A stretch of DNA of 64,000 nucleotides, from contig JAOZFI010000036.1 in NCBI GenBank assembly GCA_027491395.1, positions 1 to 64,000 on the forward strand, given 5' to 3'. The translations under genes were made by a program, and so were the position numbers. Each line of letters begins with the position of its first letter. The first letter of the stretch is position 1. Source of the DNA: Thermoproteota archaeon. GTDB taxonomy: Archaea > Korarchaeota > Korarchaeia > Korarchaeales > Korarchaeaceae. Positions 4,637-12,739 of the stretch are shown here, piece by piece. The notes beneath the pieces were generated by a model that had not been told where the DNA came from, ran no database searches, and was given only the letters and a program-made list of their open reading frames with translations.

Positions 4637-5920
4637 TTAAAGCCCCAGAACATCCTCATATCCCTTCAGGTCCAGCAACCCATGTCCGGAAAAGTTGAAG
4701 AGTATCACCTTCTCCCTACCCTCCTCTTTAGCCTTCAGCGCCTCATCTATTGCCGCTTTCACCGCATGGGTGGTTTCCGGGGCTGGGATCAGACCTTCCG
4801 TCATGGCGAATATTCTCCCAGCCTCGAATACGTCCTCTTGTGGGTAAGCAATTGACTTAATTACTCCCTTGGACTTCAGAAGGCTCACCGTCGGAGCGGC
4901 CCCGTGATACCTCAGACCACCAGCGTGTATAGGTGGTGGCACGAAGTCATGCCCGAGCGTGAACATCTTTATGAGAGGAGTCACCCCAGCGCTGTCTCCG
5001 AAGTCGTACCTGTACTCTCCTTCCGTAAGTGAGGGAGAAGCCCTCGGCTCCACTGCTATGACCTTGTACTCCTCTCTTCCACTCAGCATCTCCTCTATGA
5101 AGGGAAAAGTGAGCCCAGCGAAGTTGCTTCCACCTCCAACGCATCCTATGAGCACATCCGGCTTCTCACCCACGATCTCCATCTGCTTCTTGGCCTCTAA
5201 TCCTATTACGGTCTGATGCAGTAGCACATGATTTAGAACGCTTCCCAGCGAGTACTTCGCTTTCTCATCCTTCATCGCCGTCTCTATAGCCTCGCTTATG
5301 GCTATGCCTAGGGAGCCGGGGTGATTCGGATCCTGTTCAAGGTACTTCCTGCCTATCTCAGTCCTGTCGCTCGGTGACGGAACGATATCTGCGCCGTAGA
5401 GCTTCATGACTAGTTTTCTATAGGGCTTCTGTTGGTACGAGATCCTGACCATGAAAACTAGGGCTCTCAGTCCCATCATCGAAGTCGCGTAGGACAGCGC
5501 ACTTCCCCACTGCCCAGCACCCGTTTCAGTCGTCAGGTATTCAAGTCCCTCCTTGGCAGCACAGAAGGCCTGCACTAATGCGGTGTTCAGCTTGTGGCTC
5601 CCCGTCGGAGTCACATCCTCCCTCTTGTAGTATATCTTGGCCGGAGTCCTCAGGTACTCTTCTAATCTCCTAGCCCTGTACAGGGGCGTGGGCCTACCGA
5701 TCCTCACGTAAAACTCCCTGAGCTCTTCAGGTATCTTGATGTACTTCTCCTTGGAGAACTCCTGATTCACGCACTCCTTCGGGAACAGGGGATAGAAATC
5801 CCCTGGTCCCAGTGGCTCCTTCGTCGCCGGATGTATGGGTGGCGGTAAATCAGGCAGATCCGAGACTATGTTGTACCAATAGGTAGGTATCTCCTCTTGA
5901 CCGAGATCCACCCTTATCAT
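4637..5920 (-). CDS. trpB2: Tryptophan synthase beta chain, TrpB2 type
   Basis: GSHKLNTA (PLP lysine), [29 protein letters not shown]; no trpA nearby. Confidence 0.93.
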
Positions 5921-6051
5921 CTGAGTACACCTCCATCCAAGGAGCTGGGCAGGTCGCTGGACGATCCGGACGTTGTATGGAACGCGGGAATGATGACGGT
6001 TGTCTTAGACAAGGAGAGAGGAGATCTCATCAGAGGTCTCTCAAGGCCAAA
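5917..6051 (-). other. Open +1 frame (44 sense codons, internal ATG at 6030) in the trpB2 leader; its TGA overlaps the trpB2 ATG (ATGA)
   Basis: Read manually: TTT GGC CTT GAG ... GTA CTC AGA TGA, with no stop between 6051 and 5920. Confidence 0.4.
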
Positions 6052-6064
6052 CTAGATCCCCCAT
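6041..6064 (-). promoter_or_regulatory. Candidate Trp leader peptide MGDLVWP*
   Basis: ATG GGG GAT CTA GTT TGG CCT TGA, with GGGGTG RBS 5 nt upstream and TTTTAA box at about 6109-6114. Confidence 0.55.
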
Positions 6065-6178
6065 ACTTGCACCCCCTAGAGCGGGTTGGGTCGGCTGACC
6101 TTCAACAGTTAAAAGCATTACTGTACAGGGAACTCCGCACAGAGCTTTCGGACCCCGATCTTCAAGGAGGCATTCGAA

Positions 6179-7474
6179 ATGGAGAAGCGGAACATCATAA
6201 TACTCTCACTGGTTGGATTCGTCATATCCCTGGGATTCGGTGCCATATCCCCGATCCTCCCTTACTACGTGGTCTACTTGGAGGGAGGGATAACTGAACT
6301 CCCCGAGGAGCTGGGCGTCATAGAGCATGCCTCCCAGTACGCCGTGGAGTACGGTTTAATGATGTCCGCATTTATGCTCACACGGGCCTTCTTCGCTAGG
6401 TACTTCGGCTCCCTCAGCGATAGGATTGGAAGGAAGAAATTGATAACGGCGGGCTCGATCATATACTCGCTTCTGGCCTATGCATACATACTGTCCTCGA
6501 GTGTTTATGACCTCTATGCTATTAGAGCCCTTCAGGGAATTGCTTCAGCCATGGTCTGGCCTGTCGCCGAGGCATTGCTGATGGACAGCGTTCCAAGCGA
6601 GATGAGGGGGAGATCCATGGCGATATACATGACCTTAACGAATCTGGCAATGATCGGGGGTCCGGCCATAGGCGTGGGTATCTACAAATTCGGTATCCAA
6701 ATTCTGGGGATAAGAGATGTTGAACAGGCGCTGAAGTTCCCCTTCATCGGTTTAGCGGTTATATCGGCGTTCTCCGTTCTCTTCTCCTTACTACTCAAGG
6801 AGAATAGGGCGGAGCTCGATAAGAAGGCAATAGATTCACTCAAATCAGATGTTAAACTCCCTAAATCTATCAGAAGAAGCATAAACGCGATTTACGTTAT
6901 GGCATTGGCTAACGGATTTGCAATGGGATTCATAGCTCCAATAATGAGCCTCTACATTATACAGTTCATTTCATCGGACCCGGCCGCAATAGCAGTGGTC
7001 ACCACAGTCTCCGGACTCTTTGGATTAGCAGCCGCTTACCCAGGAGGGAGATTGAGCGACAGATTTGGGAGGAAACCACTGATCTTAATAGCTGGAGTCT
7101 TCTCACGTCTCATGACCTTGCTGATACCCACTGCTAGAGATGTAGAGGGACTTACGGTCATATCCACCGTCAGATCCATCGCATTCAACATGTACATACC
7201 CTCGTTTAGAGCGCTCCAGGCTGATATAGCCCCGAAGAACATAAGGGGAAAGGTGTTCGGGACGGTACAAGCTATGTTCAACTTCGGGGCAGTTTTGGGT
7301 CCGGTAGTTGGTGGTCAGCTCTACAAAGAATTCGCTCCTCGAAATGTACAGGTGGGGAGCATCGTCCTACCTGGCGCCGCGTTATCCTTCATAGCCAGCG
7401 CTTCCATCGGATTGTTCACTCTGTTGCTGTTCGCCCTGTTCGTGGAAGAACCGGCTAATCCCCAAGGACAGTAA
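6179..7474 (+). CDS. MFS transporter (DHA1-like)
   Basis: GSLSDRIGRK and GRLSDRFGRK motif A twice; about 12 TM segments. Confidence 0.9.
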   Translation: MEKRNIIILSLVGFVISLGFGAISPILPYYVVYLEGGITELPEELGVIEHASQYAVEYGLMMSAFMLTRAFFARYFGSLSDRIGRKKLITAGSIIYSLLAYAYILSSSVYDLYAIRALQGIASAMVWPVAEALLMDSVPSEMRGRSMAIYMTLTNLAMIGGPAIGVGIYKFGIQILGIRDVEQALKFPFIGLAVISAFSVLFSLLLKENRAELDKKAIDSLKSDVKLPKSIRRSINAIYVMALANGFAMGFIAPIMSLYIIQFISSDPAAIAVVTTVSGLFGLAAAYPGGRLSDRFGRKPLILIAGVFSRLMTLLIPTARDVEGLTVISTVRSIAFNMYIPSFRALQADIAPKNIRGKVFGTVQAMFNFGAVLGPVVGGQLYKEFAPRNVQVGSIVLPGAALSFIASASIGLFTLLLFALFVEEPANPQGQ

Positions 7475-7877
7475 CTATTACCTTTCTAATGCGTGGATGG
7501 GTATCCACCTCAACCCATATGATGCTCTGCCAAGTTCCTAACGCTAAAGACCCGCCGATCACAGGAAACACCTTGCTGGGTTCCATTAGGATTGATCTGA
7601 TATGGGAATGCGCATTTACCGGGTGTTTGTATTCGGCGTGACGGGGAATGATCCTCTCAAGAACCTCCCTCAAATCCTCTAACAGGGACGGATCATTCTC
7701 GTTGATTATAATGGCCCCAGTAGCGTGGGGCGCGAAGACCACGGCTATTCCGTCTCTAATCCTGCTCTTCTCGACTATCTCCTGAATCTTATCGGTTATA
7801 TTGATGAAGCTGATCTCCCCCTCCGTCTTGAACGAGAAGGTGGATGTAATTACCTTCAAGGACCACTCACCTCGCAC
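7455..7877 (-). CDS. yjbQ: YjbQ/UPF0047 family protein (likely TTG start about 7859)
   Basis: HATGAIIINE, NAHSH, LGTWQ. Confidence 0.88.
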   Translation of the reverse strand: MRGEWSLKVITSTFSFKTEGEISFINITDKIQEIVEKSRIRDGIAVVFAPHATGAIIINENDPSLLEDLREVLERIIPRHAEYKHPVNAHSHIRSILMEPSKVFPVIGGSLALGTWQSIIWVEVDTHPRIRKVIVTVLGD

Positions 7878-7904
7878 CTAAAATGTGATAAAATGTAAAT
7901 CTTC

Positions 7905-8606
7905 ATGGGGGTTCCACAGCCTGTGAGACTGAGGGAAGAGGCTCTGAGGAGCATCCACCTCATGGTGAGCGGTAGATGGGACAGAATCCCAGAAAGCCTC
8001 CTCTTATACTTCGAAGAGGAGCTAGGAGGGGATGACCTGGGCCGGGATCTAGTTGGAGTGGCCTTCCTCCTCATAAAACTCGGGGTGAGCCCCGAGAAAG
8101 CGATAGCGCTCCTCGATTGGAAGGACTTCGAGGGATTATGCGAGAGAGGGCTCCAAGTATCCGGATTTTCCACTAAGAGGGGTCTTCGATTCACACTGCA
8201 GGGGAAAAGATACGAAATAGATGTGGTGGCTTCCGACGGTGAGGTGACACTGGCTCTCGATTGCAAGATGTGGTCGAAGGGGAGTTCTCCCAAGGTTTAC
8301 AAAATACTCGAGGCCGCTGAGCACCAATATATAAGGACAATAGCCCTGAAACAAGCTATTGAACGACGATTATTAGAGGATGTTCATCCAAAACCAGGAC
8401 ATGGTGTCCTAGTACCGTGTGTCGTCACTTGGCTGGATTTCGGCTCTAAACTATCCAAATCAGGCGTCCCAGTAGTCCCGATTTCCAAGTTCCCTTCCTT
8501 CGTGAACGACATCAGATCCATCTTGGCAGAGATAGCTTCTTTAGAGACCGATTTCAGGGTTAAGATTGGGAGAGAAGCTTCCTCACAGCATCGGTTACCT
8601 CTCTGA
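7905..8606 (+). CDS. PD-(D/E)xK restriction-endonuclease-like protein (Mrr-like)
   Basis: E-x12-EIDVVA...LDCK-x-W catalytic pattern. Confidence 0.65.
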   Translation: MGVPQPVRLREEALRSIHLMVSGRWDRIPESLLLYFEEELGGDDLGRDLVGVAFLLIKLGVSPEKAIALLDWKDFEGLCERGLQVSGFSTKRGLRFTLQGKRYEIDVVASDGEVTLALDCKMWSKGSSPKVYKILEAAEHQYIRTIALKQAIERRLLEDVHPKPGHGVLVPCVVTWLDFGSKLSKSGVPVVPISKFPSFVNDIRSILAEIASLETDFRVKIGREASSQHRLPL

Positions 8607-9846
8607 GGCTCACCGTCGTTCTGGTCTGCTCCGTGTAGAGCGTGACGGTTTCGGATTCCTCCTCCTTGGGACCCACGAACGCCATGATTTCAGCCCCCAA
8701 TTTACGAGCGTACTCCCTCTGACTCGACTGACTCCTCCTCATCAGATCGAGGGAAACGTAGAACCCTCCCCTCCTCAGCATCTCAGCGACCCTCCAAGCG
8801 TACTTCCAGCTATCCCTCTTGACACTGACCACGAACACCTGCACGTAACTCCTCTCATCCAAGTTGAAGATCCCGAGCTCCAGTCCCGCATCAATGAGCC
8901 GCTCAACTCCCACGCTCACCCCGGTGGCCGGGACATCCTTATTGGAGTACATTCCGATTAGCCTGTCATATCTTCCACCCCCGGCCAGTGAACCTATTCT
9001 GGGTTCCCTAACCACCGTCTCGAAAACGGGTCCGGTGTAGTACTCGAGACCCCTGACCAGCGACAGGTCGAAGACCAGTCTCTCATCACCTACTATCGAG
9101 AAGATCTCCTCCAAGTGTTTGAGTGCCTCGTAAACGGCCTCATTCCTCATTGAGCTCAAGTCCTCGACTATTTCCGAGAATCCTCCCCTCTTAGAAATGA
9201 GATCCATTATTCTATCGACCAGATCCTCATGCATCCCCTTAGATAGGAGATCCGCCCTCACCCCCTCTTCACCGATCTTGTCCAGCTTATCTATAGATCT
9301 GTAGACTGGGATGGGATTGGAAATACCAAGTTCCTCCTCAAAAATGCCCGTTAGGAGCCGTCTATCATTCAATTTCACCGTGAAATCCCTGAAACCAAAT
9401 TCTCTCATTACCTCAGTGTTCAGGCTTATCACCTCAGCGTCGGCCTCGGGATAGGGGCTGCCTACCACATCCGCATCACACTGCCAGAATTCCCTGTACC
9501 TACCCCTCTGAGGTTCCTCGTGCCTCCATACTCTCCCTATGTGATACCTCTTGAACGGCAACGGCGTTTCCGGATGCATGGCCATGTACCTAGCTAGGGG
9601 GAAGGTGAGCTCGTACCTCAGGGTGTACCACTCCTTGCTGAGGAAGTCCGGAAATATGAACATGAGTCGGCTCTCCGCCTCCTCTCCCAACTTGCCCTTG
9701 ACGGTCTCCCAGTACTCCAGTGCGGGAGTCTCGAATGGGTCGAAGCCGTAGCGCTTGAACACCTCTTCTATTCTCGACATGATCCGCTTCCTTAGTATCA
9801 TAAATGGAGGGGGGAAGTCCCTGAACCCCCTCGGTATCGAGACCAA
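8560..9846 (-). CDS. hisS: Histidyl-tRNA synthetase (TTG start at 9846; RBS overlaps upstream stop)
   Basis: PRGFRDF, LRYELT, GRYREFWQCD, RGLEYYTG, GGGRYD. Confidence 0.96.
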   Translation of the reverse strand: MVSIPRGFRDFPPPFMILRKRIMSRIEEVFKRYGFDPFETPALEYWETVKGKLGEEAESRLMFIFPDFLSKEWYTLRYELTFPLARYMAMHPETPLPFKRYHIGRVWRHEEPQRGRYREFWQCDADVVGSPYPEADAEVISLNTEVMREFGFRDFTVKLNDRRLLTGIFEEELGISNPIPVYRSIDKLDKIGEEGVRADLLSKGMHEDLVDRIMDLISKRGGFSEIVEDLSSMRNEAVYEALKHLEEIFSIVGDERLVFDLSLVRGLEYYTGPVFETVVREPRIGSLAGGGRYDRLIGMYSNKDVPATGVSVGVERLIDAGLELGIFNLDERSYVQVFVVSVKRDSWKYAWRVAEMLRRGGFYVSLDLMRRSQSSQREYARKLGAEIMAFVGPKEEESETVTLYTEQTRTTVSLREVTDAVRKLLSQS

Positions 9847-9857
9847 AATTTTCCACC

Positions 9858-10985
9858 CTAGGCTGCGAGCACCTGCTCCCATATATCGTTGATCTTGGCT
9901 CTCTTCTTGTCGGTCATTACTGGAGATAGATACAACCTCTTCATGAGATCAGGTGGAGGTATGAGGGCGGGCTCCTCGGCCAGCTCAGAGGGGAGAAGCT
10001 TTTTAGTCGCTGGTATGGGCATCGCTATGTAGACGGAGATGGTCTTGTAAGCCGCCACCAGTGGATCTATGAGATAGTTTATGAGAGCCTGGGCAGCCTC
10101 CGGATTGGGGGCATCCTTAGGGACAAGCAGGTTATCTATCCAAGCTATCGCTCCCTCCTCCGGAATCAGGTACGATATGTTCTTGAACCCGTCGCCGTAC
10201 TTTATAGTGAGCACGTCCCCGTTATAGGCGTGGGCGGCCAGCAGAGACCCATTCTCTAAGCCCGGTAGGTACTTGTCCGTGCTGAAGTAACCTGCTATAT
10301 ACGGTTTCTGCTTTATGAGGGCCTCCTTCACCTCCTCCATCGTGGAATCACTCCAGTCATCTAATTCCTTTCCTAAGTACAGTTTGGTAGCGAACACGAC
10401 CTCAGGCGGATCCTCCAGCATAGAGAACTTCTTCTTATACTTCTGTAAGTAATTAGGATCGAAGAATTGCTTCCAGCTCCTCAGATCCTTTACCTCGTCA
10501 GAGTTGAGTCCTATGGCCGTACTACCGAATCCGTACGGGACCGAATAGTTGTTCCCGGGATCATATTCAAGTTCCCTGAACTTGGGATCCAAGTACTTCA
10601 GGTTGGGGACCAGCTCCTTATCCAGCTTCCTGACATATCCCCTCTCTATGGCATTTCTCACGTACTTATCGGTGAGCACCACGATGTCGTAGCCGCTCCC
10701 ACCAGCCTCGAGCTTGGCGAATGCTTCATCATCACTATCGAACACGTCATAGATTACTTTGACGCCAGTCTCGTCCTTGAAGAGCTCGAAGACGAAGGGG
10801 TTGTTGTTATTGCTCCAGTCGTACATGGCGACCTTTCCAGAGAGTTCTCTCCTAGCCTCGCTCGCTTCCTGCTCTATCCTCGCCTGAGAGACGGAAGATC
10901 CATAAAAGTAGCCAGCAGATCCACCGACGATTAAACCGGCAGCCCCAACGACTGCCAACTTGAGGAAATCTCTCCTAGAGGTGAA
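9858..10985 (-). CDS. Spermidine/putrescine (PotD/PotF-like) substrate-binding protein. Its Tat signal SRRDFLK lies upstream of the first in-frame start (TTG 10958)
   Basis: FKDETGVKV, GYDIVV, DPGNNYSVPY, PEEGAIAWIDN; frame open from 10985; no permease genes adjacent. Confidence 0.85.
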   Translation of the reverse strand, partial: FTSRRDFLKLAVVGAAGLIVGGSAGYFYGSSVSQARIEQEASEARRELSGKVAMYDWSNNNNPFVFELFKDETGVKVIYDVFDSDDEAFAKLEAGGSGYDIVVLTDKYVRNAIERGYVRKLDKELVPNLKYLDPKFRELEYDPGNNYSVPYGFGSTAIGLNSDEVKDLRSWKQFFDPNYLQKYKKKFSMLEDPPEVVFATKLYLGKELDDWSDSTMEEVKEALIKQKPYIAGYFSTDKYLPGLENGSLLAAHAYNGDVLTIKYGDGFKNISYLIPEEGAIAWIDNLLVPKDAPNPEAAQALINYLIDPLVAAYKTISVYIAMPIPATKKLLPSELAEEPALIPPPDLMKRLYLSPVMTDKKRAKINDIWEQVLAA

Positions 10986-10998
10986 CTAAATCCCCCAT
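10975..10998 (-). promoter_or_regulatory. Candidate His leader peptide MGDLVHL* (alternative ATG at 11001)
   Basis: ATG GGG GAT TTA GTT CAC CTC TAG with GGGGTG RBS; overlaps the hisD stop (TGATG). Confidence 0.5.
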
Positions 10999-12281
10999 CA
11001 TGTCACCCCGTTGCTGGGGCCGGTATCAGGGCCCTTATAAATTTTTCCTCTAACCTCGGCGGACCTAGCGTGGTACTCCAACCCCTCCAACCTAGCGAAC
11101 TCGGCGACCCTCTCGGAGATTAGGGCTTGGGCCTCTAGGGTTCCACTCTGTCTGTAAACGTATATTCCAGAGAAGTCCTTGAAGAAAGAGAACGGGCTAA
11201 GGCCAGGCCTCTCCATTAGGGTACCTCCAGTGGGCAAGATGTGATTGGCTCCCGTGTAACCGTAATCGCCGTACACCACTCCCACACCCTCGAATACGGC
11301 TCCAGCTAGCCTTGCATTGAATTCTCCCATTATCTCCAGATGTTCAGGTGCGAAAGCATCGCTGAACTCCTCCAAGGATCTCCTGTCCCCGTACAGTATA
11401 CCGCCCCTCTCCCTGAGGGAAGAGACACTCTCATCCCCCGAATATTTATCGAGCTCCTCTTTCAGCCTGAGCGCTAATTCCTCAGACGTGACGAGGGCTA
11501 GAGAAATGGAGTCGGGTCCGTGCTCCGCTTGGGCGAGCATATCCATGACCACGAACTCTATGGGAAAGCTACCATCGTAGAGAATGAGAACCTCCGACGG
11601 TCCCGCTAGGAGATCTATTCTCACATCCCTCGAAACGACCGCCTTGGCGGCTGTCACATAGGAGTTCCCGGGTCCCACGATCATATCGACCGGCTCTAGG
11701 CCGACTTCTGGGAGTCCATAAGCGAGAGAAGCTATTGCTTGGATCCCACCAACTCTCAGAACCTCATCCACGCCCAGCCGGGCGGCTAGTCCCTCTACTA
11801 GCTTGGAATTTCTCGGAGGCGTAGCCATGACAAACTCTTCAACTCCCGCTGCCCTAGCGGGAGCTACTGCCATAAGCAGGGAGGAGGGGAGGGGATGCCT
11901 GCCCCCGGGGACGTATACACCCACCCTCTCCACAAGCTTCGATATTGTACCCTCCCTTATCCACTCTAGTCGGGTCTTGAAACCCCCGACGGAGCATTCC
12001 CTTTCATCCAATAGGGATAAGGCGCAGGAGTATAACCTCTCGTAGGGCTCTAACATGAATTCCTCTATTCTGTAGTCATGCGGGGCTCCATATACCTCCT
12101 CCTTGGCTAATCTGATCCTATCGAATTTTTCGGTCAAATGTAACACGCTTTCCAGTCCTCTCTCCCTCACCTCACCCACTAGTTGGGCGGCGACCTCGAC
12201 TGGTAAGCTGATTCTCTCGCGGAGCTTGGAGAAGGCTTCATTCCAGAGATCCCTTACGTCACCGAAGAGGGCCAGTTCCAT
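10998..12281 (-). CDS. hisD: Histidinol dehydrogenase
   Basis: GVYVPGG, GPGNSYV, AGPSEV, QAEH, PEHL, GDY, NHILPT. Confidence 0.9.
   Translation of the reverse strand: MELALFGDVRDLWNEAFSKLRERISLPVEVAAQLVGEVRERGLESVLHLTEKFDRIRLAKEEVYGAPHDYRIEEFMLEPYERLYSCALSLLDERECSVGGFKTRLEWIREGTISKLVERVGVYVPGGRHPLPSSLLMAVAPARAAGVEEFVMATPPRNSKLVEGLAARLGVDEVLRVGGIQAIASLAYGLPEVGLEPVDMIVGPGNSYVTAAKAVVSRDVRIDLLAGPSEVLILYDGSFPIEFVVMDMLAQAEHGPDSISLALVTSEELALRLKEELDKYSGDESVSSLRERGGILYGDRRSLEEFSDAFAPEHLEIMGEFNARLAGAVFEGVGVVYGDYGYTGANHILPTGGTLMERPGLSPFSFFKDFSGIYVYRQSGTLEAQALISERVAEFARLEGLEYHARSAEVRGKIYKGPDTGPSNGVT
11035..11048 (-). promoter_or_regulatory. Internal BRE/TATA promoter (GGAAAAA-TTTATAA) within the 3' end of hisD
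   Basis: Purine-rich BRE plus TTTATAA about 35-40 nt upstream of the leader ATG. Confidence 0.55.
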
Positions 12282-12358
12282 AGGAGAGAAGCCTACGAAT
12301 CCCGTAATAAGCTTGATGTGGAGGAGAGCTTATAACATCGTGACAACTCTTCTCCAAG

Positions 12359-12739
12359 ATGAGCACTGTAATACAGGCGCTCTTTGAGACGGTGAGGACC
12401 CTCTCTCTCGCTGGGGAGTATCTTCCTGAGGACAGGCTCTCCTCGATAGTGGATCTCATGGCCAAGACATACGTGGAAGAACTTCCAATCACGGACAAGA
12501 CTTCTTTTCTGGAGAGCTTCGAGCTAGTTAAGAGCGCCATACTGGCTAAACCGCCCACTGACGAGGACGAGGATGTAGTGAGGCTCGCTGCATATAACCT
12601 GAGGCAGATGGAGGAGAAGCTTGGACTGAACCAGGACAAACTCAGGGACATCTTCCTCAGGAGAATAGAGGAGGATCTTGGAGAGAACTTAGCTAACCTA
12701 GTGATCCTATTCGAGAGATCGATAAGGGCCTTGGGCTAA
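12359..12739 (+). CDS. Hypothetical helical protein
   Basis: 126-aa ORF with typical composition filling the gap between genes. Confidence 0.65.
   Translation: MSTVIQALFETVRTLSLAGEYLPEDRLSSIVDLMAKTYVEELPITDKTSFLESFELVKSAILAKPPTDEDEDVVRLAAYNLRQMEEKLGLNQDKLRDIFLRRIEEDLGENLANLVILFERSIRALG

Follow-up and report, generated by a model that had tools for sequence, protein, structure and literature searches.

Leader cassettes with a tryptophan or histidine codon at korarchaeal trpB2 and hisD–hisS loci: candidate amino-acid-sensing +1 frameshift switches in Archaea

Two short leader open reading frames (ORFs) of nearly identical sequence lie on the minus strand of a 64,000-nucleotide (nt) stretch of contig JAOZFI010000036.1 (positions 1–64,000, GenBank assembly GCA_027491395.1), which comes from a Thermoproteota archaeon of the Korarchaeaceae and is called the window here. 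One leader precedes trpB2 and has a tryptophan codon at position 6. The other lies between hisD and hisS and has a histidine codon at the same position. At both sites, the +1 frame is open from codon 5 onwards and connects the leader to the downstream gene. This connection recurs in related genomes, and on the sequence evidence we regard the sites with considerable confidence as sites of programmed +1 frameshifting. The fuller model, which we favour with more reserve, is a frameshift switch of the prfB or Ty1 kind that would be triggered by a hungry sense codon and would thereby sense the amino acid. Both sites had been proposed in an original prediction made from the letters of the window, and their coordinates and sequences, including the TATA box and the Shine–Dalgarno (SD) sequence at each, were found as it described.

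Site 1, with the complete layout ggggtgcaagtATGGGGGATCTAGTTTGGCCTTGA, lies in a divergent spacer of 258 nt that has trpB2 on one side and an MFS transporter gene (6179–7474, plus strand) on the other. Unless noted, all features described below are on the minus strand. A TATA-like box for the leader transcript (TTTTAA, 6109–6114) is located approximately 47 nt 5' of the leader ATG, and a TTTTTAAA/TTTTAA box stands at an equal distance in 18 distinct Trp-type loci of the same genus. The SD sequence GGGGGTG (6070–6076) precedes the ATG by 5 nt and is complementary to the 16S tail GGAUCACCUCC. This tail was taken from two genomes of the same genus; the 16S gene was not found in the genome to which the window belongs. 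The leader itself (6041–6064) consists of eight codons, ATG GGG GAT CTA GTT TGG CCT TGA, encoding MGDLVWP. It contains a G-rich, SD-like tract, GGGGGAT (6056–6062), which ends one codon 5' of the putative slippery codon. The proposed shift heptamer is GTT-TGG-C (6046–6052), with GUU in the P site and the hungry UGG in the A site, and a +1 shift here would give TTT GGC. The +1 frame has a TAG at nucleotides 11–13 of the leader and is open from there on. The bridging ORF in this frame (5917–6051; FGLERPL...GGVLR) has 44 sense codons, and its TGA overlaps the trpB2 start codon as ATGA. trpB2 (4637–5920) encodes a stand-alone TrpB-like pyridoxal phosphate enzyme of 427 residues (Pfam PALP; 699 bits against the NCBIfam TrpB-like family, over the cut-off) and has its own SD sequence, GGAGGTG.

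Site 2 has the complete layout ggggtgacatgATGGGGGATTTAGTTCACCTCTAG and lies directly 3' of hisD (10998–12281), which encodes histidinol dehydrogenase (Pfam Histidinol_dh, E 3.7e-84). A candidate internal promoter for the leader, the TATA box TTTATAA (11035–11041), is embedded in the 3' end of hisD. The SD sequence GGGGTGA (11003–11009) is followed by the eight-codon leader ATG GGG GAT TTA GTT CAC CTC TAG (10975–10998; MGDLVHL), the ATG of which overlaps the hisD stop codon (TGATG). The proposed heptamer is GTT-CAC-C (10980–10986), and the +1 reading would be TTC ACC. As at site 1, a TAG occupies nucleotides 11–13 in the +1 frame, which is open thereafter. It continues as a 375-codon ORF (9858–10985) for a solute-binding protein resembling PotD/PotF, which begins FTSRRDFLK and has no usable start codon of its own. 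The motif TSRRDFLKLAVVGAAGLIVGG, read in the +1 frame, is part of a twin-arginine translocation (Tat) signal; it matches the Tat consensus, S/T-R-R-x-F-L-K with a hydrophobic stretch after it at the N-terminus. The next gene is hisS (8560–9882), encoding histidyl-tRNA synthetase (HisRS). Its first ATG is at 9882. A TTG at 9846 is an alternative start, and the GGGTGG ahead of this TTG overlaps the stop codon of the binding protein.

The two sites are alike only within the cassette, and their flanks share no similarity. The pattern ATGGGGGATYTAGTT, allowing up to two mismatches, has three matches in the window against 0.36 expected, and none of 100 shuffles reached three. Across the 1.72-Mb genome, the 26-nt layout occurs in exactly two copies, even when up to three mismatches are allowed. 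A repeat or mobile element was rejected, given that the likeness does not extend past the 26-nt cassette and that only these two copies exist in the genome. A third match at the peptide level, MGDLVF... on contig C62, was dismissed; it has no SD sequence, and its context does not match. The original prediction had cautioned that a 14/15 match between two leaders can arise by chance in 64 kb, a concern that is decisively answered because the leaders are conserved in other genomes.

Within the genus, ATGGGGGATYTAGTT (at most one mismatch) was found in 21/21 genomes, with zero to one match per genome for a reversed-pattern control. Every one of the 21 genomes has a Trp-type copy, always 5' of the trpB2 orthologue. 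The leader reads ATG GGG GAT YTA GTT TGG CNN stop, and its first six codons are invariant apart from the Y, except for one genome with a GTG start and nine codons. Codon 7 (CCT or CTN) and the stop codon (TGA, TAA, or TAG) vary, as is expected of a translated ORF. The +1 frame is open from the leader to trpB2 at all 21 loci over 31–49 codons, and frames 0 and +2 contain stops. The stop of the bridge overlaps the trpB2 start in each case, as ATGA at 13 loci and as RTGCTGA at 8. The bridging peptide itself is barely conserved across these loci. By shuffling, the probability of an open bridge is 0.11–0.37 per sequence cluster, and the product over five clusters is 10^-3.3.

The His leader is more narrowly distributed and is conserved to the last nucleotide. 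Of 41 genomes searched, 11 encode a full-length orthologue of the binding protein; all 11 belong to the genus of the window, and the orthologues show 83–99 % protein identity. The leader has no variable site (0/24) in the 11 loci; 10 of the next 24 nucleotides vary, and further downstream 38 of 40 third codon positions do. The end of hisD and the SD context differ between species, and the TTTATAA box is retained at 11/11 loci despite the diverged flanks. The open frame of the binding protein has exactly 375 codons in all 11 orthologues. The motif SRR(D/E)F(L/I)K is held in the +1 frame through synonymous changes (AGG AGA or AGA AGG; TTC or TTT) and through a GAT/GAA exchange. We found no ATG, GTG, or TTG between the +1 TAG and the twin-arginine codons. 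The codon at 10958, after the motif, is TTG in five loci, TTA in three, ATG in two, and CTG in one, and is thus a canonical start in 7/11. A start at TTG 10958 was rejected for the binding protein, as it is not conserved and would delete the twin-arginine motif. Paralogues of the binding protein in these genomes start M-TS-RREFLKIA (five loci) or M-Q-RREFLKIA (four loci). Since the first group begins M-TS-RREFLK, the +1 codon TTC occupies the position of their ATG, and the alignment implies that a shift at GTT|C would yield the exact junction MGDLV-TSRRDFLK.

In a single genome, such a layout would look the same as a sequencing or assembly indel, or a recent pseudogenizing frameshift, that added one base to a continuous MGDLV..TSRRDFLK frame, with the trpB2 leader as a chance look-alike. 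A simple indel had been named with the original prediction as an outcome that would count against it. The probability of this explanation is close to nil. The same layout is present in 11/11 independently assembled genomes with diverged flanks and in five metagenome contigs, the continuous frame is found in 0/11 orthologues, and the Trp leader is conserved across two classes.

Across the phylum, trpB2 is present in 37/43 genomes. Sixteen of these lie outside the genus; 14 have the leader, one (G025) does not, and one has a cut contig, so that the leader precedes trpB2 at 14 of 15 assessable loci, with (G/C)TT-TGG in each. This core is invariant in 35/35 leaders of the phylum, and in some variants only NTT-TGG is held (MGDRLW, MGDHLW, MGGLLW, MRDNVW). 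The prediction that relatives would conserve the leaders was therefore borne out for Trp within and beyond the genus (21/21 and 14/15) and for His (11/11). The peptides include VGDLVWSRE and MKVGDLVWLPD, with GTG or ATG starts, in five genomes of one genus. All others have ATG starts: MNVGDLVWLL in one genome of a further genus; MGDLVWVS in another family; MGDLVWLL, MGDRLWSL, and MGDHLWPP within one genus; MGGLLWFSP in one genome of a further genus; and MRDNVWPTYKTKQ and MMRDRVWLNRETSK in the second class. MGDLVWLL is encoded with synonymous changes (ATG GGT GAC CTA GTT TGG). The +1 TAG noted in the original prediction and the run of five G are present at both window sites and are not universal, as this leader and those with ..CGT CTT TGG demonstrate.

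The +1 frame (TTT GGN...) of the 14 leaders outside the genus enters a SerK-like ORF at 12 loci and a bridging ORF at two, and it ends on or just 5' of the trpB2 start. The two bridges belong to the second class and comprise 46 or 59 codons of AT-rich DNA. The SerK-like gene is small, encodes a ParB-fold protein, and precedes trpB2 outside the genus, its stop overlapping the trpB2 start or lying a few bases 5' of it. The protein has a partial match to the archaeal serine kinase SerK (E 1.4e-21, under the family cut-off) and a weak match to Pfam ParB_N. In four genera, no start codon recurs at a consistent place in the SerK-like ORFs, and at least 8 of the 12 loci have no conserved start. For the non-conserved bridging parts, the probability of an open frame, taken with one representative per genus, has a product of 10^-5.2 over eight genera. 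In one genome (G024), the SerK-like sequence is decayed (NKHHR for DGHHR), yet it is open for approximately 135 codons. No match to the SerK-like protein was found in the genome of the window, and its genus has apparently lost the gene and kept the open bridge. The expectation that the +1 frame connects the leader to the downstream gene held at every leader.

In one sister genus, three loci (L084, L085, L088) have an ATG two bases 5' of the leader GTG, which opens a +1-frame mini-ORF, ATG TGG GGG ATC TAG (MWGI). It contains a Trp codon and stops at the +1 TAG of the leader. Entry into the +1 frame from such an upstream ATG by read-through of UAG was considered and rejected as a general route, since the arrangement occurs only in some genomes of one genus (ATGTGGGGGATCTAG).

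A second phylum carries the same module in series. There, trpB2 is present in 50/61 genomes, and we examined 30 loci; one of the records with modules is a Thermococcus sp. Serial modules of the form ..GAT TGT TTT TGG.. precede trpB2 at 29/30 loci, three at 23 loci and two at 6. The first ORF (for example, MIARSDCFWL) is followed by one or two short ORFs that end in ..(D/G)(C/R)FW plus zero to five codons and a stop. Each later module is in frame only with the +1 continuation of the preceding TTT-TGG. The last +1 ORF ends as ATGA on the trpB2 start in 29/29 serial loci. At the thirtieth locus (L124), the last +1 frame continues into the body of trpB2, which has no start codon of its own. A functional product in the +1 frame without its own start is therefore found in three settings: the binding protein, the SerK-like ORFs of four genera, and the trpB2 of L124. 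The 81 heptamer contexts have the consensus A G G a G g G A T | T G T | T T T | T G G | C, and TTTTGG is present in all of them (81/81). The window sequence A T G G G G G A T | C T A | G T T | T G G | C matches this consensus position by position. In 15 genomes of the second phylum, the combination of tract and slippery codon is nearly confined to the trpB2 locus.

The module common to both phyla consists of a G-rich, SD-like tract, one codon, NUU, and then UGG (or CAC). The tract (GGGGGAT, GGGTGAC, GAGGGAT, GGAGTGAT) ends exactly one codon 5' of NUU in both. Codon 6 follows the pathway of the neighboring genes, as had been predicted: trpB2 is preceded by TGG without exception (35 leaders in the phylum, 81 modules in the second phylum), and CAC occurs solely ahead of the binding protein and hisS, beside hisD. 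All computational outcomes named with the original prediction fell in its favour, and every comparative test that was available supports its interpretation. A scan of the class returned exact cassette matches in 21/40 genomes, of the Trp and His types only. Types for other amino acids were not found in the genus (up to one mismatch), in the class (exact matching), or in the genome of the window (peptide level). In metagenomes, 18 matches comprised seven of the Trp type, five of the His type, five unrelated long ORFs, and one MGDLVY. The last, on a 2040-nt contig (L231), reads ATG GGG GAT TTA GTT TAC TGA after GGTG and has a +1 frame open for 36 codons; no recognizable promoter or downstream gene was found on this short contig, and a chance match is more probable than a Tyr-type cassette. 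Among the best 80 of at least 599 trpB2 matches in Bacteria and Archaea, the module was found at two loci, one of the same genus and one of a Thermococcus sp. Five further matches to a loose filter among those 80 were rejected, as they do not have the G-rich tract.

The following mechanism is proposed. A ribosome would start at the SD-preceded ATG and translate M-G-D-L-V, and peptidyl-tRNA(Val) on GUU in the P site would then await the tRNA for codon 6, UGG at site 1 or CAC at site 2. When the charged cognate tRNA is plentiful, codon 6 would be decoded, translation would terminate one codon on, and the downstream frame would not be entered. When it is scarce, the A site would stay empty, and the P-site tRNA could slip off GUU and onto UUU at site 1 or onto UUC at site 2. 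The SD-like tract GGGGGAU one codon upstream may assist by pairing with the 16S tail, as in the bacterial prfB gene; imperfect pairing of the tail with the tract is possible, with a one-codon spacer before the P-site codon. At site 1, shifted ribosomes would cross the 44-codon bridge and terminate on the trpB2 start (ATGA), and trpB2 expression would be raised. This last step may be termination–reinitiation at ATGA, or the transcript may be protected from premature termination and the mRNA may survive; polarity is known in archaeal operons. At site 2, the binding protein would be made as MGDLV-TSRRDFLK..., and ribosomes would be delivered to hisS. The conserved layout, the connected frames, the missing start codons, and the match of codon to pathway are observed in the sequences; that a shift occurs, that it occurs exactly at these codons, that amino-acid supply sets its rate, and that trpB2 gains from the arriving ribosomes is inferred. 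The tRNA genes of the genome, as listed by aragorn, include tRNA-Val(GAC), tRNA-Gly(GCC), tRNA-Thr(GGU), and a single tRNA-His(GUG). The run excluded intron-containing tRNAs, and the absence of tRNA-Trp from the list carries no weight. GUU would be read by G:U wobble, and the +1 codons GGC and ACC would have cognate tRNAs.

The bacterial prfB frameshift motif is AGG GGG UAU CUU UGA, and the original prediction had likened the leaders to it. The likeness holds in that a SD-like G-rich tract stands a few nucleotides 5' of NUU (CUU in prfB; GUU, CUU, or UUU here), a slow A-site codon follows, the shift would come early in the ORF, the useful product is reached by shifting to +1, and the frequency of shifting would reflect how scarce the A-site decoder is. 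The better register differs from the alignment first given and runs from the GGGGGAU tract over a one-codon spacer (YUA) to the slippery GUU. The differences are that an aminoacyl-tRNA decodes the A-site codon here, a sense codon (UGG or CAC), whereas prfB has a stop codon read by its own product; that the host is an archaeon; that the 0-frame product is a seven-residue throw-away peptide; and that the output is another gene (trpB2, the SerK-like gene, or the binding protein with hisS). The site also resembles that of Ty1, CUU_AGG_C, a seven-base site at which, according to a 2016 review, the NUU P-site tRNA slips +1 while the A site waits (PMC5009743). The heptamers here are GUU-UGG-C, CUU-UGG-Y, and UUU-UGG-C, and the next +1 codon is GGC in both Ty1 and site 1. 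In Ty1, a permanently rare tRNA sets a fixed Gag:Pol ratio, whereas here the scarcity would be conditional and the shift a regulatory input.

A constitutive +1 frameshift, in which a fixed fraction of ribosomes sets a low downstream expression and codon 6 is just slowly decoded, would account for all of the architectural evidence equally well. UGG is read by a single tRNA, and the genome has one tRNA-His gene in the aragorn list. We consider it unlikely, since the identity of the codon fits the pathway at every locus (35 TGG leaders and 81 modules, with CAC only at hisD/hisS), and TGG and CAC share no base at any of their three positions, with the 15 nt before them conserved. Moreover, two or three identical modules in series suit a steep response to one signal and hardly a fixed attenuation.

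Alternatively, the leader peptides could sense the amino acid without any frameshift, a stall at codon 6 altering initiation or transcript survival and the downstream ORFs starting non-canonically. A short ORF with a cognate codon before biosynthetic genes is the hallmark of bacterial attenuators, and it is seen here, with W as codon 6 before trpB2 and H as codon 6 between hisD and hisS; trpB2 also possesses its own SD sequence and ATG. This explanation is improbable, as it leaves unexplained why the +1 frame is open at 21/21 leader loci of the genus, 14/14 elsewhere in the phylum, and 29/30 in the second phylum, why the stops land exactly on the trpB2 start, and why the binding protein, the SerK-like ORFs, and the fused trpB2 of L124 are without starts. 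Nor were conserved alternative RNA structures found. RNAalifold detected no conserved structure from leader to trpB2 in 21 regions (−2 kcal/mol, six trivial pairs, none covarying), and Rfam had no match at E values up to 1 in five loci. An RNA structure masking the trpB2 SD sequence is likewise improbable, being supported by neither the alignment fold nor the minimum free energy folds. All conserved features are features of reading frames, and a translational device is therefore favored over an RNA-fold switch. Inside the otherwise variable bridging ORF, a moderately conserved stretch, CTCTCC(C/T)TGAT (within 5990–6030; same place in the same-genus loci, alignment columns 49–62), can pair with the leader GGGGGA in single-sequence folds, with no covariation.

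The conserved 15–24 nt could also be a nucleic-acid signal, such as the operator of an amino-acid-responsive repressor or an RNA-binding site, with the ORF features being coincidental. The element sits just 3' of the promoter, and within the genus its conservation exceeds what the peptide would need, GGG, GAT, and GTT never varying. Other genera, however, vary synonymously and keep the start, the frame, the position of the W codon, a nearby stop, and the +1 continuity; the stop is always there, be it TGA, TAA, or TAG; and the second-phylum modules recur in a strict frame relation. Together, these make a pure nucleic-acid signal very improbable. Transcriptional slippage is unlikely from the sequence in the phylum of the window, where the T runs have two to three residues and loss of a base in the G5 or T3 run would meet the +1 TAG. 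At the T5 run of the Thermococcus-like modules, it is a formal rival.

Several observations weigh against programmed shifting by amino-acid shortage. The SD-like tract overlaps the conserved codons for G-D, and its conservation is not distinguishable from selection on the peptide M-G-D. On UUU or UUC, tRNA-Val(GAC) would re-pair with a mismatch at the first position. trpB2 keeps its own strong SD sequence and ATG in the genus of the window and in the Thermococcus-like group, and a frameshift is not strictly required there. The genus of G025 has trpB2 and the SerK-like gene, the latter with its own ATG, without any leader. No conserved hairpin masking the trpB2 SD sequence was found in 21 sequences, and single-sequence minimum free energy folds were inconsistent. 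Only two amino acids, Trp and His, are represented, and each leader in the phylum of the window has a single regulatory codon. Finally, gene neighborhood is what links the binding protein to histidine, and its NCBIfam likeness (PotF/PotD, under the cut-off) is to polyamine binders.

Set against known systems, the cassette joins +1 frameshifting of the prfB/Ty1 type to leader-peptide sensing. It belongs to neither family, because a sense codon fills its A site and no attenuator structure was found. Like trpL, hisL, and TnaC, it is a short ORF with a cognate codon 5' of amino-acid genes, in which the translating ribosome would be the sensor. It differs from trpL and hisL in that no terminator or antiterminator was found, there is one regulatory codon, the output would be a change of reading frame, and the host is archaeal. 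Eukaryotic antizyme offers a parallel for a +1 shift that is both sensor and effector of metabolic feedback, as described in a 2021 review (PMC8211752). In antizyme, polyamines are sensed at a stop codon that has a pseudoknot downstream, whereas charged tRNA would be sensed here at a sense codon, and it is probably a coincidence that the binding protein resembles polyamine binders. The Saccharolobus solfataricus fucA1 gene is an archaeal cellular gene expressed through programmed frameshifting; it uses a −1 shift on A_AAA_AAT to join the halves of one enzyme, with no amino-acid logic and no leader ORF. The 2021 review gives fucA1 as the sole demonstrated archaeal cellular frameshift, mentions +1 shifting only as likely, in a haloarchaeal virus, and notes a suggestion of frameshifting for Mg-chelatase (PMC8211752). 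The 2016 review calls the natural use of hungry-codon (Gallant) shifting unclear (PMC5009743). A survey that covered frame transitions across 1106 prokaryotic genomes does not mention tryptophan or Thermococcales in its main text (PMC3711429). We found no published description of such a cassette in the full-text literature searched, the coverage of which excludes subscription journals and supplements, and no ribosome-mediated amino-acid sensing device in Archaea in the literature searched.

The gene content of the organism is in keeping with control by tRNA charging. The TrpA, indole-3-glycerol phosphate synthase, and anthranilate synthase families were not found in the 98.4 %-complete genome, and all three were detected in 14/14 control genomes. 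This leaves TrpB2 as the one Trp-forming enzyme found, and it would make sense for the charge of Trp-tRNA to control it. For histidine, HisG and hisD are present, the HisA/F match is weak and partial, and imidazoleglycerol-phosphate dehydratase (IGPD) was not found in this genome. The organism may thus salvage indole, and perhaps histidinol, instead of making Trp and His de novo. TrpB2 enzymes are described as using O-phospho-L-serine as a substrate and as binding indole with high affinity (PMC11917138, which cites Busch 2014 and Hettwer & Sterner 2002), and SerK as a serine kinase annotated as ParB (PMC5120207). Given this substrate use and the activity of SerK, the pair of trpB2 and the SerK-like gene is plausible as an indole-salvage unit. 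With most de novo Trp genes not found, indole salvage would switch on only when Trp-tRNA is low. The His leader would boost the output of a periplasm-type binding protein together with that of HisRS. The binding protein is an orphan between hisD and hisS, with no transporter genes adjoining, and from the neighborhood alone one might speculate that its ligand is histidine or histidinol instead of a polyamine.

On balance, we lean slightly towards a broader view, in which archaea own old and portable translational amino-acid sensors that can be used singly, re-targeted from Trp to His by the swap of one codon, or chained for a steep response. If the proposed switch operates, no natural amino-acid sensor based on frameshifting would precede it, nor any cellular case of programmed +1 frameshifting in Archaea, and it would bring a new regulatory logic in which the level of charged tRNA is read as a reading frame. 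The always-open bridges would then mean that continued translation keeps the downstream message alive or translated, and internal SD-like stimulators may act on archaeal ribosomes. It would also explain genes that are mis-called as split or start-less (the binding protein, the SerK-like gene, and some trpB2), and would provide a compact codon-programmable sensor for synthetic biology in thermophiles. The design is falsifiable, as it specifies a seven-base site, a one-codon spacer, a SD-like tract, and frame-linked outputs, and it is conserved over two phyla, including the Thermococcus-like group.

Two further ORFs adjoin the His locus. One, with an Mrr-like restriction-endonuclease domain (7905–8606, plus strand), converges on hisS, sharing 47 nt with the 3' end of that gene. 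The other (12259–12651) encodes 130 residues without a Pfam match and overlaps the start of hisD by 23 nt.

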